Assembly: GCA_964447315.1 (NCBI GenBank)
Contig: CAYURQ010000001.1
Span: 27,351-91,350 of the forward strand
From: Candidatus Woesearchaeota archaeon
GTDB taxonomy: Archaea; Nanobdellota; Nanobdellia; Pacearchaeales; GW2011-AR1
Reading direction: 5' to 3'
DNA: 64,000 bases
The stretch's first letter is position 1. The number at the start of each line of letters is the position of its first letter. Position numbers and translations under genes: made by a program. Positions 7,475-57,914 of this stretch are shown here, piece by piece. The notes beneath the pieces were generated by a model, which searched no databases, was not told where the DNA came from, and saw only the letters and a list, made by a program, of their open reading frames with translations.

Positions 7475-7588
7475 TTAAATTCTTTAAATAAAATTTTCAA
7501 TAAAAGTAGTAAATCCAAGCAAGAGAAATTTACCGTCGATAAAACTTAAAATTAAATAATGTAAAGGTTTAAAAACTAAATCCTTCTA

Positions 7589-8020
7589 ATGCTTTTATCT
7601 AAAATGGTTAATACAATTGACATGCAAGATTTGAGATACTTGAATTTATTTTCTAAAGTTACTAGAATTAGTACTAAATATTGTTTTATGTATAATAATG
7701 TTGTAGTTTTTGCTGTTCCTAAAGCACTTATTTCAAAAGCACTTGGAAAAGATGTTATTAACTTGAAAAAAATTAGTAATGTTCTTAAAAAAAGAGTTAA
7801 GGTTGTTGCAATTCCAGAAGGAATTAAAGACGCAAGAAAATTAATTGAAGCAATTGTTAGTCCAGTTACTTTTAAGGATTTGGAAATAACTGAAAATGAA
7901 ATAATTCTTAATGCAGGGCCTCAAAACAAAGCTGCTTTAATTGGTAGAAATAAAAGACGTTTAATGGAAATGCAAGAAATTGTAAAAGATTTTTTTCATA
8001 AAGAATTTAGGATTGTTTGA
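7589..8020 (+). CDS. nusA: NusA-like transcription elongation protein (two KH domains)
   Basis: 143 aa with KH-like segments (VVVFAVPKALISKALGKDVINLKKI, IILNAGPQNKAALIGRNKRRL) in the conserved position after rpoA. The true start may be an internal Met. Confidence 0.65.
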   Translation: MLLSKMVNTIDMQDLRYLNLFSKVTRISTKYCFMYNNVVVFAVPKALISKALGKDVINLKKISNVLKKRVKVVAIPEGIKDARKLIEAIVSPVTFKDLEITENEIILNAGPQNKAALIGRNKRRLMEMQEIVKDFFHKEFRIV

Positions 8021-9456: not shown

Positions 9457-10083
9457 ATGTCAGAACAAATACAAAAACAATCAAATATACTAAATTTTAA
9501 AATTTTTGACAAATATGATTTATCAGAGGTTAAAGTAACTGATCCTGGTTTAAAGTCAGCGATAAATCTTGAACCAAAATTAATTTTAAAATCTCAAGGA
9601 AGAAATGTTGTTAAACATGGACAAGCAAAAGTTAATGTTGTTGAAAGATTAATGAACAAGTTATCTGTTGCAGGACACAGAAACAAAAAACATAGAATTG
9701 AGAAAGGTGATTCTACTGGAAAATATTCTAAAAATATGAAAATTGTTTTAGAAGCACTTGAATTAGTTGAAAAAAGAACTCATAAAAATCCAGTCCAGGT
9801 TTTAGTGAATGCAATTGAAAATGCTGCTCCAAGAGATGAAACAACTGTAATTGAATACGGAGGAGCAAGGTATCCTCAAGCGGTTGATGTTGCCCCTTTA
9901 AGAAGAGTAAATTTATCATTAAAACATCTTGTTCATGGTGCAAGTGATAAAGCTTTCAAAAAGAAAAAGAAACTTTCACAAGCTCTTGGAGAAGAAATAA
10001 TTATGGCTGCTGATAATAACGGAGATGGCATGTCAATTCGTAAGAAAAAAGAATCAGAAGCTCAAGCTGATTCTGCACGATAA
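9457..10083 (+). CDS. rps7: 30S ribosomal protein S7 (uS7)
   Basis: 208 aa. Conserved uS7 core (NAIENAAPRDETTVIEYGGARY) in the conserved position before EF-2. Confidence 0.9.
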   Translation: MSEQIQKQSNILNFKIFDKYDLSEVKVTDPGLKSAINLEPKLILKSQGRNVVKHGQAKVNVVERLMNKLSVAGHRNKKHRIEKGDSTGKYSKNMKIVLEALELVEKRTHKNPVQVLVNAIENAAPRDETTVIEYGGARYPQAVDVAPLRRVNLSLKHLVHGASDKAFKKKKKLSQALGEEIIMAADNNGDGMSIRKKKESEAQADSAR

Positions 10084-10098
10084 AGATATTTCATAATC

Positions 10099-10359
10099 AT
10101 GATTTTAGATAATCTTACTATAGAAGAAATTAATTTTTTAGGAAAAATTAATCAAGAATTTAAAAATAAGAATCTAAATGGAAATGTTTACTTAATTAAT
10201 GAAAAGATTAATGGAAAAATAAAAATACTTAATTTTATTGTTAATATGGTAAGTCATAAAGATATTATTTTAAATCTCAAAAAAGATGTAGAAAAATTTA
10301 TTCCTTGTGTTTATGTTTCTAATATATCAAAATATCATGCTTATTGCAAAATTTATTGA
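10099..10359 (+). CDS. hypothetical small protein (86 aa)
   Basis: ORF between rps7 and EF-2. No motif. Confidence 0.25.
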   Translation: MILDNLTIEEINFLGKINQEFKNKNLNGNVYLINEKINGKIKILNFIVNMVSHKDIILNLKKDVEKFIPCVYVSNISKYHAYCKIY

Positions 10360-10398
10360 TAGATAACTTTTTAAACTAATTTTTGTAAATGTATTGTT

Positions 10399-12558
10399 AT
10401 GGCTGAAAAAGTTGATTTTGTGAAATTAATGAAAAATCAAAATAGGATTAGAAATATAGCTATTGCTGCTCATATTGACCATGGTAAAACTACTTTCTCT
10501 GATAATTTGCTTGCTGGTGCTGGAATGCTTTCAGAAGAAACAGCTGGAAAGCAAAGAGCTTTAGATTTTCACGAAGATGAAGCTTCAAGAGGCATTACTA
10601 TTGATAGTGCAAGTGTTTCAATGTTGCATAATGTTGGAGGTCAGGAATATTTAATTAATTTAATTGACACTCCAGGACATGTTGATTTTGGAGGAGATGT
10701 TACAAGAGCTATGCGTGCTGTTGATGGATGTGTTATTTTAACATGTGCTGTTGAAGGAGTTATGCCTCAAACAGAAACAGTTGTGAGACAAGCTTTAAAA
10801 GAGCTGGTTAAACCAGTTTTATTTATCAATAAAGTTGATAGATTAATCAAAGAAGTTAAGTTAACTCCAGAAGAAATGCAAAAGAAGTTTATTGGAATTA
10901 TTGAACATGTTAATAGATTAATAGAGCAAATTGCACCAGAGGGATATAAAGAAAAATGGAAAGTAGGGGTTGGTGAAGGAACAGTAGCGTTTGGAAGTGC
11001 TTTTCATAACTGGGCTTTAAGTTTTGAGTACATGCAAGAAAAAGGAATTTCATTCAAAGATGTTATTGATGCTTATGAAAATGATAATTATAAGGAATTA
11101 GCTAAAAAAGCTCCTTTACATGAAGTTGTTTTAGGAATGTCTATTAAACATCACCCAGATCCAAAAACAGCTCAAAAGTATAGAATTCCAAAGATTTGGT
11201 ACGGGGATTCAGAAAGTGATATTGGAAAGGATTTGGTTAATTGTGATCCAAGCGGAGAACCTGTATTTGTTCCCACTAAAATTGTTGTTGATAAGCATGC
11301 TGGTGAAATTGCAGCAGGTAGATTATTTTCAGGAACAATTAAACAAGGAGATGAAGTGATGCTAATTCAGCATGGTACAAAAACAAGGGTTCAGCAAGTT
11401 TCTGTTTACAAAGGAGCTCAAAGAATTGTTTTAGATAGTGTTTCAGCTGGTAATATTGTTGGAATTGTTGGTTTAAGAGATATTGTTGCAGGAGAGACTG
11501 TTTCAAAAAATGAAATGGAACCTTTTGAAGCTATAACTCATTTATTTGACCCTGTTGTTACTAAATCAATTGAAGCTACAAAAGCAGCTGATTTGCCAAA
11601 ATTAATTGAAGTTTTAAGACAAGTTGGTAAAGAAGATCCTTCTATTAAAGTTCAAATTAATGATCAAACAGGTGAAAGTTTAATTTCTGGTATGGGTGAA
11701 TTACATTTAGAAATTATTGAAAATAGAATTAAAACAGAAAAAGGACTAGAAGTTAAAACTTCTCCTCCAATTATTGTTTATAGAGAAACAGTTACTAAAG
11801 AATCAAATGCTTCAGAAGGAAGAAGCCCTAATAAGCACAATATTTTTTACATGAAAGTTGAACCATTAGAAGATGAATTGTATCATGCTATTCATGAGGG
11901 AGTTTTACCTGAAGGACGTGTTAAGAAAAAAAGTCAAGCTGTTATTGATGGGCTAACAAATATGGATTGGTCAAGTGATGAAATTAGAAATGTTAAAGAT
12001 ATTTACAAAGGCAATATGTTTTTAGATGAAACTCGTGGAGAAGTTCATATTGGTGAAGTTATTGAAATGGTTATGGATGCTTTTGAAATGGTTATGGATG
12101 AAGGTCCTTTGGCAAGAGAACCATGTATGAAAATGAAAGTTACTCTTGTTGATATTAGGTTGCATGAAGATGCTATTCATAGAGGTCCTGCTCAAGTTTA
12201 TCCTGCTGTGAGAGATGCTGTTAAGCAATCAATGGCTAAAGCTGGTCCAGCTATTTTTGAACCATTACAGGTTCATGTCATTGAATGTCCTGATGAATTT
12301 ATGGGAACAATCACTAAATTAGTTGGAAGTAAGAGAGGACAAATGCTTGATATGGGGCAAGAAGGTTCATTATCACAGATTAAAGCTAAACTTCCAGTAG
12401 CTGAAATGATTGGATGGAGTAATGATTTAAGAAGTGCTACTGAAGGACGTGGGACAAGCTCAATCTTAGAACAGGAATTTGAAAGAGTTCCTCAATCATT
12501 ACAAGACGGAATTATCCAAAAGATTAGAGATAGAAAAGGTTTAGCTGAAAACCAGTAA
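10399..12558 (+). CDS. fusA: translation elongation factor 2 (aEF-2)
   Basis: 719 aa. Has the GTPase G1 (AHIDHGKTT) and G3 (DTPGHVDF) motifs and EF-2 domain IV/V signatures (e.g. the LHEDAIHRG region). Confidence 0.93.
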   Translation: MAEKVDFVKLMKNQNRIRNIAIAAHIDHGKTTFSDNLLAGAGMLSEETAGKQRALDFHEDEASRGITIDSASVSMLHNVGGQEYLINLIDTPGHVDFGGDVTRAMRAVDGCVILTCAVEGVMPQTETVVRQALKELVKPVLFINKVDRLIKEVKLTPEEMQKKFIGIIEHVNRLIEQIAPEGYKEKWKVGVGEGTVAFGSAFHNWALSFEYMQEKGISFKDVIDAYENDNYKELAKKAPLHEVVLGMSIKHHPDPKTAQKYRIPKIWYGDSESDIGKDLVNCDPSGEPVFVPTKIVVDKHAGEIAAGRLFSGTIKQGDEVMLIQHGTKTRVQQVSVYKGAQRIVLDSVSAGNIVGIVGLRDIVAGETVSKNEMEPFEAITHLFDPVVTKSIEATKAADLPKLIEVLRQVGKEDPSIKVQINDQTGESLISGMGELHLEIIENRIKTEKGLEVKTSPPIIVYRETVTKESNASEGRSPNKHNIFYMKVEPLEDELYHAIHEGVLPEGRVKKKSQAVIDGLTNMDWSSDEIRNVKDIYKGNMFLDETRGEVHIGEVIEMVMDAFEMVMDEGPLAREPCMKMKVTLVDIRLHEDAIHRGPAQVYPAVRDAVKQSMAKAGPAIFEPLQVHVIECPDEFMGTITKLVGSKRGQMLDMGQEGSLSQIKAKLPVAEMIGWSNDLRSATEGRGTSSILEQEFERVPQSLQDGIIQKIRDRKGLAENQ

Positions 12559-30158: not shown

Positions 30159-30467
30159 TTAATAAGGTATCTTTTCACCTTCCCTAGAGCAATGCGTGCA
30201 ATTGCCTTCAAGACCACATTCTCCTCCAGAAAGCCTTAATCCTTGTCCAGGAGCATTATAATTTCCTTGATAATATCTACATCTTGGTTCAATAAGAAAT
30301 TCTTGCCATCCTCCTGAAGATCCAAGAGTGCTACGTCTAGATACTTTCATTCCCCCTCGAACTTCAACATCTTTTTCTTTAGAAGTGCAAGTGAATGGAT
30401 GATCATACTTTTCTCTTAAATTTTCCATTACTTCTTTAAGAACTGAATTTGAATATTCATAACTCAT
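30159..30467 (-). CDS. Cys/Gly-rich small protein, 'YDHPF' family, paralog 2 (103 aa from internal Met)
   Basis: The ORF-track ORF 30159..30590 overlaps paralog 1. Met42 (MSYEYSNS...KYDHPF) gives a protein co-linear with the upstream paralog. Conserved KYDHPFxC, FxIEPxCxYYxGxY and C-terminal CxxC. Confidence 0.45.
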   Translation of the reverse strand: MSYEYSNSVLKEVMENLREKYDHPFTCTSKEKDVEVRGGMKVSRRSTLGSSGGWQEFLIEPRCRYYQGNYNAPGQGLRLSGGECGLEGNCTHCSREGEKIPY

Positions 30468-30474
30468 TTTTAAA

Positions 30475-30783
30475 TTATACATTTCCTCCATCTGTTTCAC
30501 AGGCTCTGCAAACACTTTTTCCTGGTTTTCCACAAATTCCAGTGTCTCCTCCTGTATATCCTCCCCTATAATAACTACATTTTGGTTCAATAAAGAATTT
30601 TTGATATCCGCTATTACTAGGAGCTGATCCAGGATACCACCTAACAGTCATCCCTCTAACCCGCACCCCTATCTCCTGCGCTTTTTTACTCCCTCCCTTT
30701 GCAAGAATATTTAGATACCCACAAATAAACGGATGATCATATTTTTTTTCCAGATCCTTTTTTATTTCATTAACATCTGACAT
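30475..30783 (-). CDS. Cys/Gly-rich small protein, 'YDHPF' family, paralog 1 (102 aa)
   Basis: Paralogous to 30159..30467, with conserved motifs in the same order. Arranged in tandem on the same strand. Confidence 0.45.
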   Translation of the reverse strand: MSDVNEIKKDLEKKYDHPFICGYLNILAKGGSKKAQEIGVRVRGMTVRWYPGSAPSNSGYQKFFIEPKCSYYRGGYTGGDTGICGKPGKSVCRACETDGGNV

Positions 30784-31535: not shown

Positions 31536-31832
31536 TTATTCTTCATCTTCCTCAAGAACTAGTAAACTAAGTAAAACAATTAATACTCCTGCTATTATAG
31601 AAATTACCCAGCTTAGCCAACCTAACTCTAGAGTCTTAAACTTAATTATTAAAAAACCTGCAATACCAAGCAATCCTATGAATATATAATCTTTTCGTAT
31701 TTTTTCTTTGATAATTGGGGCGTGTTCTGAAAATACATCAAGAATTCCAGTAACAATTACAACAACCAATAATATATTTAAGTTAAGATAAGTGCTAACA
31801 AGTCCTGCCCATATTTGTTCAATCAATAACAA
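31536..31832 (-). CDS. small 3-TM membrane protein, family A (98 aa)
   Basis: Three hydrophobic helices and an acidic C-terminus (LEEDEE). About 90% identical to 33542..33844 and to its copies in repeat 2. The last ~9 codons lie outside the repeat. Confidence 0.5.
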   Translation of the reverse strand: MLLIEQIWAGLVSTYLNLNILLVVVIVTGILDVFSEHAPIIKEKIRKDYIFIGLLGIAGFLIIKFKTLELGWLSWVISIIAGVLIVLLSLLVLEEDEE

Positions 31833-31937
31833 TATTAGATAAGTTACTAAGACTGTTTGAAAGATGTGATTTACTAGGGATGCGTTGTGTCTGTGGAAAA
31901 GGGAAAAGTTTATAGAATTTTAAATTATTATTAAAAC

Positions 31938-32324
31938 ATGGAAGAAAGAGATGTAATAATTAAGATTTATGATAAAAAAGAAGAAATTAATAAAATAATT
32001 AAAGAATTAAAAAAATATTCATTTGAAGATTACATTAAAACTGGCCATTATGAAATTTCTTTATTAACTAAAGGAACAGATGAAGATAAATTGAGAGAGA
32101 TTTATCCTAAATTTGATATTATAGAATTAATAGCATTGAGGAGGCATAAAAATGGTTATGAGAATTATGATGTTTATTATGAACTTGAAAAAGGAAATTA
32201 TGCTTTGTTTGCCATAAATCTAGAAGGTAAAAAACCTAAAATAGATAATGCATTTATAGCTAATAGAATATTCAAAAATTTCTTAAAATCTATGGTAAAA
32301 AGATATGGTAATAAAATGGTTTAA
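31938..32324 (+). CDS. hypothetical protein B (128 aa)
   Basis: Divergent from family-A gene, with a TATA-like TTTATAG about 30 nt upstream. No motif. Its stop overlaps the convergent DUF2283-like gene by 4 nt. Confidence 0.4.
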   Translation: MEERDVIIKIYDKKEEINKIIKELKKYSFEDYIKTGHYEISLLTKGTDEDKLREIYPKFDIIELIALRRHKNGYENYDVYYELEKGNYALFAINLEGKKPKIDNAFIANRIFKNFLKSMVKRYGNKMV

Positions 32325-32656
32325 TTAGTCATGCATTGCATAGGTATATTTGCTATAGGAATTTGTTTTATTCCTGCTTTTTCATCTTCTAATCCCACCC
32401 CAATAAATAATTGATCTCTGCTTGGTTTTACAATAAGATTTAATTTTTCAAAGTCTTTTATTTGTTGTATATTAAACCCTATTGCCTCAAGAAAATTAGA
32501 AAACTCTCTTACTTCTAAACTAACTACTTTTCCGTTTCCAGTAGTGCTAATAATAAAATCTCCAAAGCTAAAATTCTTCTTAACTTTCTCATTATCTTGA
32601 ATAGAAGCCACAATTAAGCTGTCTGTATTCTCATCATATTTAGAGACTTTTATCAT
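32321..32656 (-). CDS. DUF2283-like small protein (111 aa)
   Basis: N-terminal MIKVSKYDENTDSLIV...GKVVSLEV matches the DUF2283 pattern (M.i.YD.e.D.lyi...G.ivGiEi). Confidence 0.4.
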   Translation of the reverse strand: MIKVSKYDENTDSLIVASIQDNEKVKKNFSFGDFIISTTGNGKVVSLEVREFSNFLEAIGFNIQQIKDFEKLNLIVKPSRDQLFIGVGLEDEKAGIKQIPIANIPMQCMTN

Positions 32657-32756
32657 ATTTTATAATAATATTTTGTTTATTTATACCTTTCTATTCATCT
32701 TCTAGAGGCAAGTAAAACATATAAATCTTAATAAATAATTAAAACTCCTTTTCTTA

Positions 32757-33545
32757 ATGGGAATTGATTCATCTGAAGCAAATCAAATAATAAACGCTAT
32801 TGATTTTGTAAATCATCATTATGGAGGTTCTGCAAAAGTTACTGGAGAATTCTTTTGTAAAGACTGTAATGAGAAATTTCCTTCTGGAGAATTTCGTTAT
32901 GATAAAGGAGGGTATATTCCAGGGCCAGGTTTAATTAATTTGTCTTCTGAAAGGGCTGCATTTCCCCTTCATGAGTTTCATACTGTTCTTGCTTTAAAAG
33001 ATTCTGATGAGATCTATGAAAAAAGAGTGATTTTAGACTTATTTAATAAATCAAGAAACTGGAATTTTTATGATGTTCCAGAAAGATGCTTTGAGGATTA
33101 TATGAAAATAATGAAAACAAGCTCACTAATTTCTATTGCTAGTCTAGAAGCTAATCATTGGTGTTATTCACTTCATTCAACACCAGATTTTACAGAAGAA
33201 GAAATGCTGGAGGATCCTATTAAAAGGGATATTCTAGAAATGGATAGGAAGATTAATCTTAGGCCAAATAAATTAGAAAATGAGGTTAAACCAGAAATAA
33301 ATCGGGTTTTCAAAGACATAATTGGTAATAGAGAAATTCCAATAATTTATATTATTCCAGAAGAATTTAGAGGAGATTTTGGAGAGGAATATTATAAAAG
33401 GGATTTTATTGAAGCAACATACAATACTTTTAAAGCAAAGAACATACTTTTTCCAGATGAAAAAAGAAATTCTGTTATTAAAATAATTGATTCTTACTTT
33501 AAAGAAGCAGAATTAAAGCATGAAAGACACCCTTCTCCTTTTTAG
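32757..33545 (+). CDS. hypothetical protein D (262 aa)
   Basis: ORF. N-terminal CKDCNEKF and later Cys/His residues. No recognised domain. Confidence 0.4.
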   Translation: MGIDSSEANQIINAIDFVNHHYGGSAKVTGEFFCKDCNEKFPSGEFRYDKGGYIPGPGLINLSSERAAFPLHEFHTVLALKDSDEIYEKRVILDLFNKSRNWNFYDVPERCFEDYMKIMKTSSLISIASLEANHWCYSLHSTPDFTEEEMLEDPIKRDILEMDRKINLRPNKLENEVKPEINRVFKDIIGNREIPIIYIIPEEFRGDFGEEYYKRDFIEATYNTFKAKNILFPDEKRNSVIKIIDSYFKEAELKHERHPSPF

Positions 33546-33844
33546 GATTCTTCATCCTCTTCTAAAACAAGTAAACTAAGTAAAACAATTAATACTCCTG
33601 CAACAAGAGATATTACCCATGACAACCATCCTAATTCTAGTGTTTTAAACTTGATTATCAGGAAACCTGCAATACCAAGCAATCCTATAAATATGTAATC
33701 TTTAGGTTTTATTTTTTCTTTAATAATTGGAGCGTGTTCTGAAAATACATCAAGAATTCCAGTAACAATTACAACAACTAATAAGATATTTAAGTTAAGA
33801 TAAGTGCTAACAAGTCCTGCCCATATTTGCTCAATTAATAACAA
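33542..33844 (-). CDS. small 3-TM membrane protein, family A' (100 aa)
   Basis: Paralog of 31536..31832 within the same repeat copy. Upstream region also similar. Confidence 0.5.
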   Translation of the reverse strand: MLLIEQIWAGLVSTYLNLNILLVVVIVTGILDVFSEHAPIIKEKIKPKDYIFIGLLGIAGFLIIKFKTLELGWLSWVISLVAGVLIVLLSLLVLEEDEES

Positions 33845-33960
33845 TATTAGATAAGTTACTAAGACTGTTTGAAAGGTGTGATTTACTAGGGATGTGTTGT
33901 GTCCACGGAATAGGAGGTGTTGGAGTGAGGGTTTGGGAATGTTGATAGGATTATTTTAAT

Positions 33961-34602
33961 TTATATAGAAGAATTAATATCTCCATGCACTACTAATGAT
34001 TGATAATTTTCAAATAAGAAAGGGGCATAAAATTGGGCTTCTGGAAAATCTTTAGTTGTACTTAGATACCAAATATTCTCTTCCATTTTATCTTTAGCTC
34101 TTTCAACTGACTTTTCTATAGTAGAACCTTCTATTAATGCTTTAACAAGGATATTTGAGGGTTCTAAAAATAATTTTGCTATTTTATCTCTTCTTGGAGA
34201 TGCCTCCTGATTAGGATCTTTCCCAAGATTAAAATCTCTCTCATATCCAATAAAACAAATGGCTCCTTTAGTAACTATTATCTTCCCTAGTTTTTGTCCT
34301 GATGAACAAGTTAGGGAATAAACAACCATGCCTGAAAGAACTTTTGCATTTTCTTTAGAGATTATTATCTCATTTTTATGCCCAGCAATCAAATCAGGAT
34401 TACCATGCCCATTAAACATAATAAAATCTGGTTTTTGCTTTTTTATAATTTTTAAGATTTCTTTTTTATTTGCTTTTTCTCTTTCCCTATTTATTGTTTT
34501 GTTTCCTCTTTCTTTCGAATATTTAACTAATTCTTTACTATAATAATATAAATAAGAGAGGGTCCCATCATGCTCGGGTCTGGAAAAAATAATATTACTC
34601 AT
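33961..34602 (-). CDS. putative minimal caspase/hemoglobinase-fold protease-like protein (His/Cys dyad)
   Basis: 213 aa. FIMFNGHGNPDLIAGH (His followed by Gly, like the caspase SHG motif), then about 33 residues later YSLTCSSGQ (Cys followed by small residues, like QACRG / DACHSG). An N-terminal beta-strand IIFSRPEHDG. Last gene of the operon G-F-E. Confidence 0.3.
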   Translation of the reverse strand: MSNIIFSRPEHDGTLSYLYYYSKELVKYSKERGNKTINREREKANKKEILKIIKKQKPDFIMFNGHGNPDLIAGHKNEIIISKENAKVLSGMVVYSLTCSSGQKLGKIIVTKGAICFIGYERDFNLGKDPNQEASPRRDKIAKLFLEPSNILVKALIEGSTIEKSVERAKDKMEENIWYLSTTKDFPEAQFYAPFLFENYQSLVVHGDINSSI

Positions 34603-34604
34603 AA

Positions 34605-34841
34605 TTATTGTTTTACTAAAAAACCTCTTTTGAAAGCTTTAAGATAGTTTAATTGGATTTCAACTATTCTATTTCCAATATCTGTATTATCTTCTATGTT
34701 TTTTATCAACTCATCTCTTTTCATAAATTTTCCATCAGACATTCCAAATGAAACACTTACATTTGGGGAAGCCTGCCTAATTCTTTCTATGACTATTTCT
34801 TTCTTTAACTGATCTATATTCTCTTGTTTATTTTCTTTCAT
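34605..34841 (-). CDS. hypothetical protein F (78 aa)
   Basis: Middle gene of the operon. Overlaps the upstream gene by 4 nt (ATGA). Confidence 0.35.
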   Translation of the reverse strand: MKENKQENIDQLKKEIVIERIRQASPNVSVSFGMSDGKFMKRDELIKNIEDNTDIGNRIVEIQLNYLKAFKRGFLVKQ

Positions 34842-35020
34842 ATTATTTCTAACTCTTTTAGTATTTTTAATATTTTCTCTCCATTTTCTGTCTTATTCTT
34901 TATTTCTTGGTAAGCAAGATTCCAACTTATTGGATTTTTATCTATAATTACTATTGTATTGTTTCTTTCTTTTATAGGCACTCCAGAATAAACTTTAAAG
35001 AAATCTTCTTCATTTACCAT
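34838..35020 (-). CDS. hypothetical protein G (60 aa)
   Basis: First gene of the G-F-E operon. Confidence 0.3.
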   Translation of the reverse strand: MVNEEDFFKVYSGVPIKERNNTIVIIDKNPISWNLAYQEIKNKTENGEKILKILKELEII

Positions 35021-35203
35021 TATTAAATTAGTAAATTAATCTTTTTAATTTTTGTCATTTCTTTTTCCTCGGCTTATTCCAATAAGGACTTTGGGGTTTC
35101 ATGAAACACTGAAGAGAAAAGGATATTTAAATGCTGTTTTTTGGAGTGTGGGTAAAACAATTCATCTTAATCTATATATTTTTTAATTAATGATTCTATA
35201 ATT

Positions 35204-35464
35204 TTAATTATACACTTTATCTCTTTTATCAATTTTTACTATCAAAATTATTTTCTGAGCTTCTTTAATTTTATATAATGCTCTAAAGTACCCAATTCTA
35301 TACCTAAAAACCATCTCATTATTATCTCTCCCAATAAACTTTGAATCACTTGGTACAGGAGTATTTTCAAGGTTTTTTAATCTCTTTTCAATCCTTTCTC
35401 TTTCTTTGGTATCTAATTTGTTTAAAAAATCCTGGGCTTTAACAGACAGCTCTACAGAATACAT
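35204..35464 (-). CDS. RelE/ParE-family toxin (86 aa)
   Basis: MVFRYRIGYFRALYKI...IILIVKIDKRDKVY is the classic RelE/ParE C-terminal signature. Confidence 0.6.
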   Translation of the reverse strand: MYSVELSVKAQDFLNKLDTKERERIEKRLKNLENTPVPSDSKFIGRDNNEMVFRYRIGYFRALYKIKEAQKIILIVKIDKRDKVYN

Positions 35465-35465
35465 T

Positions 35466-35627
35466 TTACAGTCTCTTTGTTCTGCCTTCTTTTAAATCTT
35501 CTTCAGCTTGATTTAAAGAGTTTATGTCGTCTTGGGTTAGAGTTACATCTATTATGTGCTCCTTTAAAGAATCCATATCTTTTTTTAAATTGTCTAGTTT
35601 ACTTATGATTAATTCTTCGTTTTCCAT
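35466..35627 (-). CDS. putative antitoxin (53 aa), not in ORF track
   Basis: My reverse-complement translation gives MENEELIISKLDNLKKDMDSLKEHIIDVTLTQDDINSLNQAEEDLKEGRTKRL. Its stop lies 2 nt before the RelE ATG, the typical antitoxin-toxin arrangement. Confidence 0.45.
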   Translation of the reverse strand: MENEELIISKLDNLKKDMDSLKEHIIDVTLTQDDINSLNQAEEDLKEGRTKRL

Positions 35628-35781
35628 ATCTTCCAATATAAAAATAACTATATAATCTTTTCGTATTTTTTATTTTTCATAAGGGGTGTTGGTTGGAGCA
35701 TTTTAGGGAGTATTGTAAATTAAAAAAAAAGAAATAATTAGCAGAACAATCAAAAAAAATTAGAAAAGATATGGAAAGAAT

Positions 35782-36189
35782 CTACAAAATTTCTTTTAAA
35801 TAATTAGATAAATTTAAATCCCTAATTTCTTGTTTTCTTAACCATTTATAATCTTCATGTTCTTTACTTAACTTAACATTCTCTGGTTTTTCATGAGTTT
35901 TTAATATATATATTATTCTTAAAAGATGAACTTTTTTCCCTTGTTTCTCATATTCTTTACTTAATATTCTATAGATTGAAACTATTTCTGTATCGAGACT
36001 TGTTTCTTCCTTAACTTCTCTAAGTACAGCTTCAGAAGGATCTTCTCCAAATTCAACTCTTCCTCCAGGAATTTCCCATTCTCGAGAACCATCTACTTCT
36101 TTTGAATTTCTTTTAAGAAAAAGAAACTTATCTTGTATCTGAATCAATCCATTTGCTAAAATATTTGTTTTTTTCTTAATTTCTGACAT
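35782..36189 (-). CDS. NUDIX hydrolase
   Basis: 135 aa. Nudix box GGRVEFGEDPSEAVLREVKEETSL (Gx5Ex7REVxEExG). Sits in the unique 544-bp spacer between the two repeat copies. Confidence 0.8.
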   Translation of the reverse strand: MSEIKKKTNILANGLIQIQDKFLFLKRNSKEVDGSREWEIPGGRVEFGEDPSEAVLREVKEETSLDTEIVSIYRILSKEYEKQGKKVHLLRIIYILKTHEKPENVKLSKEHEDYKWLRKQEIRDLNLSNYLKEIL

Positions 36190-36224: not shown

Positions 36225-36527
36225 CTAATCTTGTTGTTCACCTTCTTCTAAAACAAGCAAACTAAGTAAAACAATTAATACTCCTGCTATTATAGAAATT
36301 ACCCAGCTTAGCCAACCTAACTCTAGAGTCTTAAACTTAATTATTAAAAAACCTGCAATACCAAGCAATCCTATGAATATATAATCTTTTCGTATTTTTT
36401 CTTTGATAATTGGGGCGTGTTCTGAAAATACATCAAGAATTCCAGTAACAATTACAACAACCAATAATATATTTAAGTTAAGATAAGTGCTAACAAGTCC
36501 TGCCCATATTTGTTCAATCAATAACAA
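36225..36527 (-). CDS. small 3-TM membrane protein, family A (copy 2; C-terminus differs outside the repeat)
   Basis: Identical to 31536..31832 except for the last residues (EEGEQQD). Confidence 0.5.
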   Translation of the reverse strand: MLLIEQIWAGLVSTYLNLNILLVVVIVTGILDVFSEHAPIIKEKIRKDYIFIGLLGIAGFLIIKFKTLELGWLSWVISIIAGVLIVLLSLLVLEEGEQQD

Positions 36528-36632
36528 TATTAGATAAGTTACTAAGACTGTTTGAAAGATGTGATTTACTAGGGATGCGTTGTGTCTGTGGAAAAGGGAA
36601 AAGTTTATAGAATTTTAAATTATTATTAAAAC

Positions 36633-37019
36633 ATGGAAGAAAGAGATGTAATAATTAAGATTTATGATAAAAAAGAAGAAATTAATAAAATAATTAAAGA
36701 ATTAAAAAAATATTCATTTGAAGATTACATTAAAACTGGCCATTATGAAATTTCTTTATTAACTAAAGGAACAGATGAAGATAAATTGAGAGAGATTTAT
36801 CCTAAATTTGATATTATAGAATTAATAGCATTGAGGAGGCATAAAAATGGTTATGAGAATTATGATGTTTATTATGAACTTGAAAAAGGAAATTATGCTT
36901 TGTTTGCCATAAATCTAGAAGGTAAAAAACCTAAAATAGATAATGCATTTATAGCTAATAGAATATTCAAAAATTTCTTAAAATCTATGGTAAAAAGATA
37001 TGGTAATAAAATGGTTTAA
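36633..37019 (+). CDS. hypothetical protein B (copy 2)
   Basis: Identical to 31938..32324. Confidence 0.4.
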   Translation: MEERDVIIKIYDKKEEINKIIKELKKYSFEDYIKTGHYEISLLTKGTDEDKLREIYPKFDIIELIALRRHKNGYENYDVYYELEKGNYALFAINLEGKKPKIDNAFIANRIFKNFLKSMVKRYGNKMV

Positions 37020-37351
37020 TTAGTCATGCATTGCATAGGTATATTTGCTATAGGAATTTGTTTTATTCCTGCTTTTTCATCTTCTAATCCCACCCCAATA
37101 AATAATTGATCTCTGCTTGGTTTTACAATAAGATTTAATTTTTCAAAGTCTTTTATTTGTTGTATATTAAACCCTATTGCCTCAAGAAAATTAGAAAACT
37201 CTCTTACTTCTAAACTAACTACTTTTCCGTTTCCAGTAGTGCTAATAATAAAATCTCCAAAGCTAAAATTCTTCTTAACTTTCTCATTATCTTGAATAGA
37301 AGCCACAATTAAGCTGTCTGTATTCTCATCATATTTAGAGACTTTTATCAT
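37016..37351 (-). CDS. DUF2283-like protein (copy 2)
   Basis: Identical to 32321..32656. Confidence 0.4.
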   Translation of the reverse strand: MIKVSKYDENTDSLIVASIQDNEKVKKNFSFGDFIISTTGNGKVVSLEVREFSNFLEAIGFNIQQIKDFEKLNLIVKPSRDQLFIGVGLEDEKAGIKQIPIANIPMQCMTN

Positions 37352-37451
37352 ATTTTATAATAATATTTTGTTTATTTATACCTTTCTATTCATCTTCTAG
37401 AGGCAAGTAAAACATATAAATCTTAATAAATAATTAAAACTCCTTTTCTTA

Positions 37452-38240
37452 ATGGGAATTGATTCATCTGAAGCAAATCAAATAATAAACGCTATTGATT
37501 TTGTAAATCATCATTATGGAGGTTCTGCAAAAGTTACTGGAGAATTCTTTTGTAAAGACTGTAATGAGAAATTTCCTTCTGGAGAATTTCGTTATGATAA
37601 AGGAGGGTATATTCCAGGGCCAGGTTTAATTAATTTGTCTTCTGAAAGGGCTGCATTTCCCCTTCATGAGTTTCATACTGTTCTTGCTTTAAAAGATTCT
37701 GATGAGATCTATGAAAAAAGAGTGATTTTAGACTTATTTAATAAATCAAGAAACTGGAATTTTTATGATGTTCCAGAAAGATGCTTTGAGGATTATATGA
37801 AAATAATGAAAACAAGCTCACTAATTTCTATTGCTAGTCTAGAAGCTAATCATTGGTGTTATTCACTTCATTCAACACCAGATTTTACAGAAGAAGAAAT
37901 GCTGGAGGATCCTATTAAAAGGGATATTCTAGAAATGGATAGGAAGATTAATCTTAGGCCAAATAAATTAGAAAATGAGGTTAAACCAGAAATAAATCGG
38001 GTTTTCAAAGACATAATTGGTAATAGAGAAATTCCAATAATTTATATTATTCCAGAAGAATTTAGAGGAGATTTTGGAGAGGAATATTATAAAAGGGATT
38101 TTATTGAAGCAACATACAATACTTTTAAAGCAAAGAACATACTTTTTCCAGATGAAAAAAGAAATTCTGTTATTAAAATAATTGATTCTTACTTTAAAGA
38201 AGCAGAATTAAAGCATGAAAGACACCCTTCTCCTTTTTAG
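37452..38240 (+). CDS. hypothetical protein D (copy 2)
   Basis: Identical to 32757..33545. Confidence 0.4.
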   Translation: MGIDSSEANQIINAIDFVNHHYGGSAKVTGEFFCKDCNEKFPSGEFRYDKGGYIPGPGLINLSSERAAFPLHEFHTVLALKDSDEIYEKRVILDLFNKSRNWNFYDVPERCFEDYMKIMKTSSLISIASLEANHWCYSLHSTPDFTEEEMLEDPIKRDILEMDRKINLRPNKLENEVKPEINRVFKDIIGNREIPIIYIIPEEFRGDFGEEYYKRDFIEATYNTFKAKNILFPDEKRNSVIKIIDSYFKEAELKHERHPSPF

Positions 38241-38539
38241 GATTCTTCATCCTCTTCTAAAACAAGTAAACTAAGTAAAACAATTAATACTCCTGCAACA
38301 AGAGATATTACCCATGACAACCATCCTAATTCTAGTGTTTTAAACTTGATTATCAGGAAACCTGCAATACCAAGCAATCCTATAAATATGTAATCTTTAG
38401 GTTTTATTTTTTCTTTAATAATTGGAGCGTGTTCTGAAAATACATCAAGAATTCCAGTAACAATTACAACAACTAATAAGATATTTAAGTTAAGATAAGT
38501 GCTAACAAGTCCTGCCCATATTTGCTCAATTAATAACAA
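38237..38539 (-). CDS. small 3-TM membrane protein A' (copy 2)
   Basis: Identical to 33542..33844. Confidence 0.5.
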   Translation of the reverse strand: MLLIEQIWAGLVSTYLNLNILLVVVIVTGILDVFSEHAPIIKEKIKPKDYIFIGLLGIAGFLIIKFKTLELGWLSWVISLVAGVLIVLLSLLVLEEDEES

Positions 38540-38655
38540 TATTAGATAAGTTACTAAGACTGTTTGAAAGGTGTGATTTACTAGGGATGTGTTGTGTCCA
38601 CGGAATAGGAGGTGTTGGAGTGAGGGTTTGGGAATGTTGATAGGATTATTTTAAT

Positions 38656-39297
38656 TTATATAGAAGAATTAATATCTCCATGCACTACTAATGATTGATA
38701 ATTTTCAAATAAGAAAGGGGCATAAAATTGGGCTTCTGGAAAATCTTTAGTTGTACTTAGATACCAAATATTCTCTTCCATTTTATCTTTAGCTCTTTCA
38801 ACTGACTTTTCTATAGTAGAACCTTCTATTAATGCTTTAACAAGGATATTTGAGGGTTCTAAAAATAATTTTGCTATTTTATCTCTTCTTGGAGATGCCT
38901 CCTGATTAGGATCTTTCCCAAGATTAAAATCTCTCTCATATCCAATAAAACAAATGGCTCCTTTAGTAACTATTATCTTCCCTAGTTTTTGTCCTGATGA
39001 ACAAGTTAGGGAATAAACAACCATGCCTGAAAGAACTTTTGCATTTTCTTTAGAGATTATTATCTCATTTTTATGCCCAGCAATCAAATCAGGATTACCA
39101 TGCCCATTAAACATAATAAAATCTGGTTTTTGCTTTTTTATAATTTTTAAGATTTCTTTTTTATTTGCTTTTTCTCTTTCCCTATTTATTGTTTTGTTTC
39201 CTCTTTCTTTCGAATATTTAACTAATTCTTTACTATAATAATATAAATAAGAGAGGGTCCCATCATGCTCGGGTCTGGAAAAAATAATATTACTCAT
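38656..39297 (-). CDS. putative caspase-fold His/Cys protein (copy 2)
   Basis: Identical to 33961..34602. Confidence 0.3.
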   Translation of the reverse strand: MSNIIFSRPEHDGTLSYLYYYSKELVKYSKERGNKTINREREKANKKEILKIIKKQKPDFIMFNGHGNPDLIAGHKNEIIISKENAKVLSGMVVYSLTCSSGQKLGKIIVTKGAICFIGYERDFNLGKDPNQEASPRRDKIAKLFLEPSNILVKALIEGSTIEKSVERAKDKMEENIWYLSTTKDFPEAQFYAPFLFENYQSLVVHGDINSSI

Positions 39298-39299
39298 AA

Positions 39300-39536
39300 T
39301 TATTGTTTTACTAAAAAACCTCTTTTGAAAGCTTTAAGATAGTTTAATTGGATTTCAACTATTCTATTTCCAATATCTGTATTATCTTCTATGTTTTTTA
39401 TCAACTCATCTCTTTTCATAAATTTTCCATCAGACATTCCAAATGAAACACTTACATTTGGGGAAGCCTGCCTAATTCTTTCTATGACTATTTCTTTCTT
39501 TAACTGATCTATATTCTCTTGTTTATTTTCTTTCAT
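39300..39536 (-). CDS. hypothetical protein F (copy 2)
   Basis: Identical to 34605..34841. Confidence 0.35.
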   Translation of the reverse strand: MKENKQENIDQLKKEIVIERIRQASPNVSVSFGMSDGKFMKRDELIKNIEDNTDIGNRIVEIQLNYLKAFKRGFLVKQ

Positions 39537-39715
39537 ATTATTTCTAACTCTTTTAGTATTTTTAATATTTTCTCTCCATTTTCTGTCTTATTCTTTATTT
39601 CTTGGTAAGCAAGATTCCAACTTATTGGATTTTTATCTATAATTACTATTGTATTGTTTCTTTCTTTTATAGGCACTCCAGAATAAACTTTAAAGAAATC
39701 TTCTTCATTTACCAT
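39533..39715 (-). CDS. hypothetical protein G (copy 2)
   Basis: Identical to 34838..35020. Confidence 0.3.
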   Translation of the reverse strand: MVNEEDFFKVYSGVPIKERNNTIVIIDKNPISWNLAYQEIKNKTENGEKILKILKELEII

Positions 39716-39898
39716 TATTAAATTAGTAAATTAATCTTTTTAATTTTTGTCATTTCTTTTTCCTCGGCTTATTCCAATAAGGACTTTGGGGTTTCATGAA
39801 ACACTGAAGAGAAAAGGATATTTAAATGCTGTTTTTTGGAGTGTGGGTAAAACAATTCATCTTAATCTATATATTTTTTAATTAATGATTCTATAATT

Positions 39899-40159
39899 TT
39901 AATTATACACTTTATCTCTTTTATCAATTTTTACTATCAAAATTATTTTCTGAGCTTCTTTAATTTTATATAATGCTCTAAAGTACCCAATTCTATACCT
40001 AAAAACCATCTCATTATTATCTCTCCCAATAAACTTTGAATCACTTGGTACAGGAGTATTTTCAAGGTTTTTTAATCTCTTTTCAATCCTTTCTCTTTCT
40101 TTGGTATCTAATTTGTTTAAAAAATCCTGGGCTTTAACAGACAGCTCTACAGAATACAT
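39899..40159 (-). CDS. RelE/ParE-family toxin (copy 2)
   Basis: Identical to 35204..35464. Confidence 0.6.
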   Translation of the reverse strand: MYSVELSVKAQDFLNKLDTKERERIEKRLKNLENTPVPSDSKFIGRDNNEMVFRYRIGYFRALYKIKEAQKIILIVKIDKRDKVYN

Positions 40160-40160
40160 T

Positions 40161-40322
40161 TTACAGTCTCTTTGTTCTGCCTTCTTTTAAATCTTCTTCA
40201 GCTTGATTTAAAGAGTTTATGTCGTCTTGGGTTAGAGTTACATCTATTATGTGCTCCTTTAAAGAATCCATATCTTTTTTTAAATTGTCTAGTTTACTTA
40301 TGATTAATTCTTCGTTTTCCAT
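40161..40322 (-). CDS. putative antitoxin (copy 2)
   Basis: Identical to 35466..35627. Confidence 0.45.
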   Translation of the reverse strand: MENEELIISKLDNLKKDMDSLKEHIIDVTLTQDDINSLNQAEEDLKEGRTKRL

Positions 40323-40591
40323 ATCTTCCAATATAAAAATAACTATATAATCTTTTCGTATTTTTTATTTTTCATAAGGGGTGTTGGTTGGAGCATTTTA
40401 GGGAGTATTGGGGGAGGAAGGGAAAAGTAGATAAATATTCATTAAACAATAATATCACAATGAGAAAAAGTTTATATATCCCGCATTGTTTGATAAATTA
40501 TGAGAGTAAAATGGGGGGTGAATGTATTTTCTGAAAGATAGTTTTATAAATATAATTAAATCTCTCTTTTATAAAGATTTTAAGTAAAAAA

Positions 40592-56639: not shown

Positions 56640-57914
56640 ATGATAAGTCGAGAAATTTTGAAAGATATCTTACTTGAAAAACCAAGACACAAAAAGATAA
56701 TTAAAAGAGACATAAACTTGGTAGATATTGATAAGATTTTTTCTATAATAGGTCCAAGAAGAGCAGGTAAAACTTATTTTCTATTTCAAATAATTGAAAA
56801 TTTAATTGAAAAAGGTGTGGAAGAATCTCAAATTTTATACATTAATTTTGAAGATGATAGATTAAGTGATATTGAAAAGGAGGATTTGCAATTGATACTT
56901 GATACTTTTTATGAGCTTTTTCCAGAAAATAGAAATAAAAAAATTTATTTTATGTTTGATGAGGTACAAAATGTTCCCTCTTGGTCAAAATTTATCAGAA
57001 GATTGCAAGATAAAGAAAATTGCAAAATATATCTTACAGGAAGTTCAGCAAAATTACTTAGCAAAGAGATAGCAACAGAATTAAGAGGAAGAACTTGGTC
57101 GTATTACATTTACCCTTTCTCATTCAAAGAATATCTTTTGAAAAAAGAGATTAATTTAAATAAAAATACAATCTATACAAAAGATAAACATCTTATAATA
57201 AATTATTTTAATAAATATCTAGAACAAGGAGGTTTTCCAGAAACAATTGAGTTAGGAGAAAGAGAAAGAATTATTCTCCATCAAAATTATTATGATAGTG
57301 TTCTTTTTAGAGACATTATAGAAAGATATAATCCCTCTAATGTAGACATTATTAGAGAATTATTTAAAAGTTTAATAAACAATTTTGCTAGATCCTTTTC
57401 TGTTCATAAATTTTATAACAATCTAAAATCTCAAAACAGGGCAATTAGTAAAGATTATCTTTATCCATTAGTTAATTATCTAGAAGATACAATGTATTTC
57501 TTTTTTGTCCCAATATATTCGGAATCCCAAAATATTAGAACAACTAATCCCAAGAAAGTTTATCTCGTGGATAATGGATTAATAAAAAGCATAATTTCTA
57601 AACCAGAGGAAGAAGGATGGCTTTATGAAAACCTAGTGGCAATAGAATTATTAAGGCAGGGAAAAGAGATATCTTATTTTAAAGGTAAAGGAGAATGTGA
57701 TTTTATCTCTATAGATAAAATTAAGAAAATATCTATGCCCATCCAAGTTACTTTAGAGCCTGATTCAGAAAGAGAAATCCAAGGTTTATTAGAAGCAATG
57801 AACAGAATTAATGTAAACCAAGGAACCATTATAACAAAAGCTGAAGATAAGACTATTGAAAAAGAAGGCAAAAAAATAATCATAATTCCTCTTTGGAAAT
57901 GGTTATTAATTTAA
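56640..57914 (+). CDS. COG1373-type AAA+ ATPase
   Basis: 424 aa. Walker A (GPRRAGKTY) and Walker B (IYFMFDEVQ), with the typical COG1373 architecture and a C-terminal restriction-endonuclease-like region. Confidence 0.65.
   Translation: MISREILKDILLEKPRHKKIIKRDINLVDIDKIFSIIGPRRAGKTYFLFQIIENLIEKGVEESQILYINFEDDRLSDIEKEDLQLILDTFYELFPENRNKKIYFMFDEVQNVPSWSKFIRRLQDKENCKIYLTGSSAKLLSKEIATELRGRTWSYYIYPFSFKEYLLKKEINLNKNTIYTKDKHLIINYFNKYLEQGGFPETIELGERERIILHQNYYDSVLFRDIIERYNPSNVDIIRELFKSLINNFARSFSVHKFYNNLKSQNRAISKDYLYPLVNYLEDTMYFFFVPIYSESQNIRTTNPKKVYLVDNGLIKSIISKPEEEGWLYENLVAIELLRQGKEISYFKGKGECDFISIDKIKKISMPIQVTLEPDSEREIQGLLEAMNRINVNQGTIITKAEDKTIEKEGKKIIIIPLWKWLLI

Follow-up and report, generated by a model that had tools for sequence, protein, structure and literature searches.

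In prokaryotic immunity, proteases of the caspase fold are increasingly recognised as central effectors, as in Craspase, SAVED-CHAT and the TIR-activated caspase-like system, and in these a fused sensor domain explains activation. Craspase is encoded with the small partner proteins Csx30 and Csx31, which are substrates or regulators. A similar logic is found in CalpL-CalpT-CalpS and ImmA-ImmR, where a protease is encoded with small regulators that are cleaved to flip a switch. Here we describe a three-gene module in a 64,000-nucleotide stretch of a Candidatus Woesearchaeota archaeon genome (GenBank assembly GCA_964447315.1, contig CAYURQ010000001.1; the whole stretch is called the window below). 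Its third gene encodes a 213-amino acid protein that, judging from its modelled structure, is very probably a stripped-down cysteine protease of the caspase/gingipain type, belonging to an undescribed family. In this module the catalytic domain occurs alone, and its only constant companions are two proteins of 60-80 amino acids. The best overall explanation, to which we assign a probability of roughly 0.6, is that the protein is a clan CD peptidase of a self-contained module, bound by its partners and most likely serving as a conflict or addiction switch.

All three genes lie on the minus strand and encode soluble proteins. The open reading frame (ORF) of the first, of 60 amino acids, occupies positions 34838-35020 of the window, and that of the second, of 78 amino acids, positions 34605-34841; the stop codon of the former and the start codon of the latter overlap as ATGA at 34838-34841. 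Two bases separate the stop of the second gene from the start of the third (33961-34602), the predicted stand-alone clan-CD-like cysteine peptidase of the caspase/haemoglobinase fold. Residues 60-74 of this protein read FIMFNGHGNPDLIAG and residues 95-102 read YSLTCSSG, which places His66 (codon cat, 34405-34407) within FNGHG and Cys99 (codon tgt, 34306-34308) within LTCSS, 33 residues apart. A first-pass annotation, made from the DNA sequence alone, had proposed a set of 60-, 78- and 213-amino acid genes with an ATGA overlap at 33961-35020, a His and a Cys at these two positions and a protease as the last gene of the operon. The ORFs are exactly as claimed, the motif positions are confirmed, and the gene order is kept in 79 of the 82 loci discussed below. 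A 71-amino acid ORF antisense within the protease gene (34328-34543, plus strand) is of low complexity and hydrophobic, and is most likely spurious.

The nearest functional analogies to the module are the CHAT-protease defence systems and the protease/regulator switches, from which it is set apart by the lack of a sensor domain and by partners that bear no relation to theirs. In gene arrangement, its small partners can be likened to Csx30 and Csx31 of Craspase. CalpL and ImmA belong to other protease classes, Lon-like and metallo, respectively, and are accompanied by recognisable sigma, anti-sigma or helix-turn-helix proteins, whereas the partners in our module have no recognisable DNA-binding fold. 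The gingipains (MEROPS C25; PF01364) are the sole Pfam family with a recurrent match to the protease, and the 33-residue spacing between His211 and Cys244 of RgpB equals that between His66 and Cys99. However, gingipains are secreted, multi-domain proteins of more than 400 residues, and the 213-amino acid protein lacks their prodomain, Ig-like domain and C-terminal domain for type IX secretion.

SAVED-CHAT (PDB 8tl0; bioRxiv 10.1101/2023.06.23.546230) and the Craspase protease TPR-CHAT/Csx29 (PDB 7y84) are likewise cytoplasmic prokaryotic caspase-fold proteins with a His/Cys dyad. However, the SAVED, TPR or other sensor domain of CHAT systems is absent from the 213-amino acid protein, the partner proteins are unrelated, Pfam CHAT gives no match at E ≤ 1, and no CRISPR or cyclic-nucleotide synthase gene occurs in the conserved neighbourhood. 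Caspases, metacaspases and paracaspases (family C14), together with the TIR-activated caspase-like system (bioRxiv 10.1101/2024.10.24.620036), share the same order of structural elements and the placement of the dyad on loops L3 and L4. Instead of the Q-A-C-x-G pentapeptide of C14, the family described here has (S/A)-(L/R)-(S/T)-C, it shows no obvious inter-subunit linker, and it possesses its own invariant D139 and F-L-E-P-S-N motif. The protease represents a new family within a known kind of enzyme, set in a new, strictly conserved three-gene architecture, with an unusual distribution across DPANN archaea and bacteria of the candidate phyla radiation (CPR).

Predicted fold and catalytic dyad of the protease

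Clan CD peptidases are defined by a six-stranded sheet and five major helices in the order β1-α1-β2-α2-β3-(small β section)-α3-β4-α4-β5-...-β6, in which the small β section lies between β3 and α3, the catalytic His (as His-Gly) is at the C-terminal end of β3, and the catalytic Cys is at the C-terminal end of β4 (McLuskey and Mottram, PMC4357240). Our AlphaFold2 model of the 213-amino acid protein, built on 40 homologues, has a predicted local distance difference test score (pLDDT) of 95.9 and a predicted template-modelling score of 0.92. DSSP assigns to it strand β1 (residues 3-8), helix α1 (13-31), β2 (35-40), α2 (46-56) and β3 (60-64), a small β section (71-73 and 79-82), then α3 (83-89), β4 (93-97), α4 (105-111) and β5 (116-120), followed by a loop, three helices within residues 140-202 and finally β6 (203-207). 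The order of elements along the chain is that of clan CD. The placement of the dyad also agrees: His66-Gly67 of the N-G-H-G motif follows the end of β3, where His66 is the proposed general base, and Cys99, the proposed nucleophile, follows the end of β4.

When this model was compared with the PDB by Foldseek, seven of the ten top matches were clan CD enzymes, and further clan CD families appeared lower in the list. The best fold match is SAVED-CHAT 8tl0 (E 9e-7, template-modelling (TM) score 0.56-0.62) and the second-best is the gingipain RgpB 4ief (E 1.4e-4, TM-score 0.60). Other clan CD matches are Craspase TPR-CHAT 7y84, caspase-11, the legumain-type butelase-1, separase, C11 proteases and MALT1. 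Among the viral models of BFVD, a giant-virus ‘Caspase domain protein’ of 200 amino acids is one of the top matches (E 2.9e-5), and clostripain-like proteins are found at E about 0.03-0.06, well short of significance.

In Pfam, the protein matches Peptidase_C25 (PF01364) over residues 32-103, a span that includes both His66 and Cys99, with 16.6 bits and E 0.0048, which does not reach the gathering threshold of 23 bits. The same family recurs in 7 of the 40 homologues (best E 4.4e-4). As for CHAT, no match to Peptidase_C14 is seen at E ≤ 1 for the window protein, and neither family is among the 25 most matched by the 40 homologues. Because the membership tests for C25, C14 and CHAT all failed, we file the protein in none of the three. 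Searches of PADLOC, NCBIfam and PHROGs with all three proteins gave nothing meaningful; in PADLOC-DB v2, the 213- and 60-amino acid proteins have no match at E ≤ 1 and the 78-amino acid protein has matches at chance level only (E about 0.01). PDB sequence searches with the single protease, a close-family profile and a wide DPANN plus CPR profile returned chance matches only, such as an aspartate aminotransferase at E 0.03. Since the matches in Pfam, NCBIfam and PADLOC are all below threshold, we treat the protein as a new clan-CD-like family. In local hhalign alignments with caspase-3 and a fragment of RgpB, H66 falls on the catalytic His in both cases, but at probabilities below 1%, which makes this a lead at most. 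The protein has no signal peptide, transmembrane segment or accessory domain (maximum Kyte-Doolittle(19) value 0.99).

Invariant in 78/78 full-length homologues, which come from two domains of life and have a mean pairwise identity of about 38%, are N64, H66, G67, C99, G106, D139, S149 and N150. The L1 segment R8-P9-x-H11-D12 is near-invariant (of these 78 sequences, 77 have P9, 75 have D12 and 63 have R8), and the family has its own motif, D139...A-K-x-F-L-E-P-S-N.

These data bear on the possibility that an H-G...C motif arose by chance on a generic flavodoxin- or CheY-like α/β domain, or that the ORF is spurious. The Foldseek matches do include Spo0F and other receivers of the CheY-like type at E about 1e-4, and the lack of a significant PDB sequence match could be read in the same direction. 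However, the receiver matches cover about 120 of the 213 residues, with a query-normalised TM-score near 0.35, against 220-240 columns and 0.55-0.62 for clan CD, and we rejected the receiver assignment. Moreover, archaeal and bacterial homologues alike keep the dyad without exception, and there are hundreds of full-length homologues of constant length. A chance motif is thereby effectively refuted. We are highly confident, on the strength of the model, that the fold and the His/Cys dyad are of the caspase/haemoglobinase type (clan CD).

The minimal caspase fold with a His/Cys dyad put forward in the first-pass annotation is thus supported by a confident model, by the clan CD fold matches and by the invariance of the dyad in 78/78 sequences. 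Structure prediction found the caspase order of elements, with neither a fold lacking it nor a confident match to an unrelated family. The expectation that Peptidase_C14 or CHAT profiles would recognise the protein did not hold, Peptidase_C25 being the one match and a sub-threshold one. The annotation had also spoken of a minimal archaeal version; the archaeal member is real, but the family is not specifically archaeal, as its distribution shows. The cell-suicide or defence role to which the annotation pointed is plausible, but it gains no support from PADLOC models or from the RelE/ParE neighbour, which is not conserved at other loci.

Family size and distribution

A word-indexed protein search found 192 relatives, all of about 213-215 amino acids and all unannotated. 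In an exhaustive search of representatives (clusters at 50% identity), 1,878 clusters match at E ≤ 1e-3 and 241 at E ≤ 1e-30, and the top 150 are stand-alone proteins of about 205-220 amino acids or fragments of such proteins. No domain fusions of the protease were seen, and its length is always about 215 amino acids. Long ORFs at some loci (L054, L072 and others) had looked like fusions and were rejected as stop-to-stop read-through artefacts.

A scan of 185,579 GTDB species representatives recovered 80 loci. On the archaeal side, the hosts are the DPANN lineages Woese-, Pace-, Nano-, Micr-, Aenigm-, Alti- and Nanohaloarchaeota and Iainarchaeum. CPR bacteria (Patescibacteria) account for roughly half of the members found, namely Davies-, Shapiro-, Woyke-, Gottesman-, Collier-, Levy-, Woese- and Saccharibacteria, Paceibacterota and Microgenomates. 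As far as this genome scan could see, the family is confined to DPANN archaea and CPR bacteria. The gene content shared by these two groups of ultra-small symbionts bears on their evolution and on gene exchange between them.

A neighbour-joining tree largely divides the bacterial from the archaeal sequences. Within the CPR sequences, however, are nested three from archaea (L033, L036 and L042), which points to at least one inter-domain transfer. Some of the metagenome-assembled genomes (MAGs) that carry the module are titled Gammaproteobacteria, Pseudomonadales or Methanosarcinales (L022-L024, L031, L034, L047-L050, L062, L076 and L087), and the module of L031 is almost identical to Daviesbacteria/Microgenomates copies. 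Because the module sequences of these MAGs cluster tightly with those of CPR bacteria or Nanoarchaeota, the labels of these third-party annotation assemblies are probably wrong.

We found no description of the protease family or of the module, including in DPANN archaea and CPR bacteria, in the literature that could be searched. This is a large family without a model in Pfam, NCBIfam, PADLOC or PHROGs, and a family model would annotate thousands of ‘hypothetical proteins’.

Conservation of the three-gene module

We ran hidden Markov models of the three proteins on six-frame ORFs of all loci, which gave 82 non-redundant loci. The same-strand order of the 60-, 78- and 213-amino acid genes is kept in 79 of these; the other three are without one or both small genes, two of them at contig ends and one for no apparent reason. 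The gap from one gene to the next, as extrapolated, stays close to zero, within about ±25 nt, at almost every one of the 79 loci. The pairwise identities of the three proteins correlate with one another (r = 0.67-0.74). Mean pairwise identity is 38% for the protease, 33% for the 78-amino acid protein and 44% for the 60-amino acid protein, which makes the last the most constrained of the three.

By comparison, the flanks are not conserved: the most widespread cluster of neighbouring genes occurs in just 6 loci, and the 150 immediate neighbours represent 139 Pfam families, headed by MNT-type nucleotidyltransferases (6) and RadC (5). Given the conserved gene order, the co-evolution of the three proteins and the unrelated flanks, the three genes constitute an autonomous, co-evolving module. 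The architecture is also that of a type II toxin-antitoxin-like system, with coupled small genes upstream, a larger effector and variable contexts. A minority of neighbours are flagged by PADLOC, namely PDC-M05A, PDC-S09, AbiEi, a type IIG restriction-modification enzyme and CARF/CasR-like proteins. Toxin-antitoxin or defence-type neighbours thus comprise the MNT-like nucleotidyltransferases, AbiEi, the type IIG enzyme, the PDC candidates and, in the window, ParE.

At one locus, in a Micrarchaeia MAG (L054, 2577-3749), the open frame that lies upstream of the 60-amino acid gene includes a tyrosine-recombinase-like stretch (…LRIGEAIRVNIKDINL…), which suggests an integrase remnant beside the module.

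The two small partner proteins

The 60-amino acid protein has 56 homologues, all of about 60 amino acids, with the consensus F-x-K-x-Y-x-x-L-P-x-x-x-R ... P-x-(S/T)-W ... E-I-x-N-x-T-x-x-G-x-K-I-L ... L-x-I-I. The 78-amino acid protein has 38 homologues and is strongly conserved. Its AlphaFold2 model (pLDDT 85.7) consists of a helix (residues 2-23), a β-hairpin and two further helices (42-50 and 54-77). Neither small protein has a match in Pfam or NCBIfam, and the 60-amino acid protein has none among PDB sequences.

Foldseek comparison of the 78-amino acid model with the PDB gave no significant match. The best hit, prefoldin β, has E about 1, which is no evidence for a prefoldin-like topology. 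A winged-helix assignment for this protein, raised by Trans_reg_C and CadC at E 0.005-0.03, was also rejected, as the model has the order helix, hairpin, helix, helix and no significant structural neighbour.

Common to both small proteins is E-(I/V)-x-N-x-T-x-x-G-x-K-I-(I/L), which follows a β-hairpin and an invariant E-R pair. Direct alignment of the two families by hhalign gives E 5e-4 and a probability of 32% over 17 columns. From this shared sequence, the 60- and 78-amino acid proteins are probable paralogues, and hence they likely form a heterodimer.

The C-terminus of the 60-amino acid protein ends in a helix (L-x-I-I), and that of the 78-amino acid protein is variable. The termini are relevant to another view of the enzyme, that it has a caspase fold and is no endopeptidase. 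Like GPI8 and butelase-type legumains, the protein might act as a transamidase or ligase, or it could carry out some other Cys/His acyl transfer on the small proteins or on a non-protein substrate. The presence of the legumain-type ligase butelase-1 among the fold matches is consistent with this, as are the D139...A-K-x-F-L-E-P-S-N motif, which has no counterpart that can be mapped to known clan CD S1 pockets, and the lack of a peptidase Pfam model above threshold. However, the small proteins carry no obvious C-terminal ligation signals, and all experimentally characterised members of clan CD use the His/Cys dyad for peptide-bond chemistry (PMC4357240). We regard a non-endopeptidase as quite improbable.

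A distant viral homologue

A tblastn search of GenBank phages gave one match, in Caudoviricetes sp. vir519 (BK063666.1), an archaeal virus predicted to infect Methanofastidiosa. The matching region (L088, 4600-5543) encodes a 248-amino acid protein and, upstream, an overlapping 66-amino acid gene. The 248-amino acid protein is distantly but genuinely homologous to the protease (hhalign probability 98.5%, E 2e-15, 198 columns). It retains the GHG and SC of the dyad motifs and lacks the R-P-x-H-D and F-L-E-P-S-N motifs, and its C-terminal hydrophobic stretch has the look of a membrane anchor. The 66-amino acid gene contains EEITAETDFGKHI; its likeness to the motif of the small partner proteins is not significant.

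Proposed partner control and possible role in conflict

In the model that we favour, the 213-amino acid protein would be an active cytoplasmic cysteine peptidase reduced to its bare catalytic domain, in which His66 (loop L3) and Cys99 (loop L4) would make up the catalytic dyad. The segment R8-P9-x-H11-D12 (L1) and residues D139 and S149-N150 probably shape the S1 pocket, and the conserved acidic residues D12 (L1) and D139 suggest cleavage after a basic P1 residue. The partners contain an invariant Arg (R19 of the 60-amino acid protein and R20 of the 78-amino acid protein, each in an E-R pair), and these positions are candidate cleavage sites. Made from translationally coupled genes, the two small α/β partners are most likely in complex with the protease, where they would serve as trans-acting regulators (inhibitor or activator), as dedicated substrates, or as both. 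The three genes would be transferred together among DPANN archaea and CPR bacteria, and the module could work as a proteolytic switch of the conflict or addiction type: once the protease is released, it would cause cellular or invader proteins to be cleaved. Our data show the genes, the modelled fold, the invariant dyad, the conserved operon, the co-evolution of its three proteins and the autonomy of the module; complex formation, P1 specificity, the identity of substrates and the biological role are what we infer here.

The two parts of this model differ in strength. That the module is a partner-controlled protease we hold to be somewhat better than an even bet. A role in conflict is more tentative, at a little under even odds, and is suggested by the variable context, by toxin-antitoxin, defence or integrase genes that now and then adjoin the module, by transfer between domains, by the homologue in a virus and by the recent duplication described below. 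If the partners regulate the protease, they would represent a new way to control a caspase-type enzyme, in a system compact enough for biochemistry. A more specific version is doubtful: in a three-component switch of DPANN archaea and CPR bacteria, a heterodimer of the tiny paralogues, and not a fused sensor or prodomain, would restrain the bare protease in trans, and on infection or stress the switch would fire and cut cellular or invader targets. If true, this would be immunity or suicide of the caspase type in a minimal and possibly ancestral style, traded between archaea and bacteria.

Several observations weigh against a partner-controlled conflict switch. No known peptidase-family profile matches the enzyme at threshold, the link to clan CD being by predicted structure at TM-scores of 0.55-0.62. 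No relatives of the module were found among IMG/VR viral contigs and plasmids, and none of the three proteins has a PADLOC model match. The 60-amino acid protein exceeds the enzyme in conservation, which one would not typically expect of an antitoxin or a simple inhibitor. Many of the neighbouring genes are housekeeping genes (FtsZ, YceG, glycosyltransferases), the neighbour counts, which have no baseline, do not establish an enrichment in defence islands, and the mostly separate bacterial and archaeal clades also fit an old, mostly vertical inheritance.

Some of these points, namely the separate clades as from long vertical residence, the stronger constraint on the 60-amino acid partner, the housekeeping neighbours and the absence of a PADLOC match, are what one would expect of the main rival. 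According to this rival, the enzyme is a housekeeping or regulatory maturation protease of CPR and DPANN cells that would, for example, process its two partners to their active forms or control the turnover of a conserved cellular protein. The very large size of the family (1,878 clusters at 50% identity) and its presence in most DPANN and many CPR lineages agree with it as well. However, a housekeeping function sits poorly with flanks that are wholly unconserved even among close relatives, with the toxin-antitoxin, defence or integrase genes that adjoin the module in several loci, with inter-domain transfer and with a viral homologue. Also, only 86 relatives were confirmed among the 185,579 GTDB species representatives, a number that the search patterns make an undercount. 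Weighing both sides, we consider a housekeeping protease unlikely and retain the partner-bound peptidase of a self-contained module as the better account of the locus.

The duplicated cassette and its surroundings

The module in the window lies within a direct repeat of 4.16 kb, in which 31557-35718 equals 36252-40413 and the sole differences are two mismatches per edge. Because the repeat contains the module, there is a second, identical operon at 38656-39715, also on the minus strand, which is confirmed by its ORFs, by the repeat identity and by matches to our hidden Markov models. Its genes encode the 213-amino acid protein (38656-39297), the 78-amino acid protein (39300-39536) and the 60-amino acid protein (39533-39715). 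Directly upstream of each copy of the module, again on the minus strand, is a toxin gene with a 56-amino acid partner gene upstream of it (35204-35636 and 39899-40331); the toxin has 86 amino acids and is of the ParE/RelE family (PF05016, E 6e-7; Gp49, E 9e-6). The module had been described at the outset as part of a duplicated cassette beside a RelE pair, and this is what we find. Among the loci inspected, the ParE pair adjoins the module in this genome and in an identical Logan contig, and it is absent from the others.

Each copy of the repeat comprises two membrane ORFs of 100 amino acids, three genes of 128, 111 and 262 amino acids, the three-gene module and the ParE pair. A Logan contig of 1,867 nt (L007, from SRR7048221) appears to stop at the edge of the repeat, which is what a branch of the assembly graph at that point would produce. 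The repeat could be a real recent duplication, or it could be strain heterogeneity joined in tandem by the assembler. The ORFs of about 100 amino acids, which look like two-helix membrane proteins, occur in four copies on the minus strand (31536-31832, 33542-33844, 36225-36527 and 38237-38539). They are of two sequence types with about 63% DNA identity, they flank the block of 128-, 111- and 262-amino acid genes in each repeat copy, and they have no Pfam match. The unique spacer of about 540 bp between the repeat copies contains a NUDIX hydrolase gene (PF00293, E 1e-17; 35782-36189, minus strand).

The window is part of an archaeal chromosome: it encodes an Rpb1/Rpb2-type RNA polymerase, a DnaG-like Toprim protein, aEF-2 and a factor of the eEF1A type, and its G+C content is 24-32% throughout. 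A search of the whole window with Rfam gave no match. A scan for sigma-70 promoters and terminators found fewer than expected from shuffled sequence, and such signals have no bearing on an archaeal genome.

In most archaea, the largest subunit of RNA polymerase is split into A' and A''. A 1,163-amino acid ORF at 3983-7474 (plus strand) matches Rpb1 domains 1-5, and the Rpb1-type subunit may be unsplit in this genome. An AAA_14/DUF4143 ATPase gene is found at 56640-57914 (plus strand), and in a related archaeal MAG (L001), genes of this type (6801-7952 and 9590-10855) lie directly downstream of the module. Finally, two overlapping ORFs of 143 and 102 amino acids at 30159-30783 (minus strand) have in common the Cys-rich pattern KYDHPF-x-C … F-x-IEP-x-C-x-YY-x-G-x-Y, and may be paralogous small Cys-rich proteins or a single frameshifted gene.

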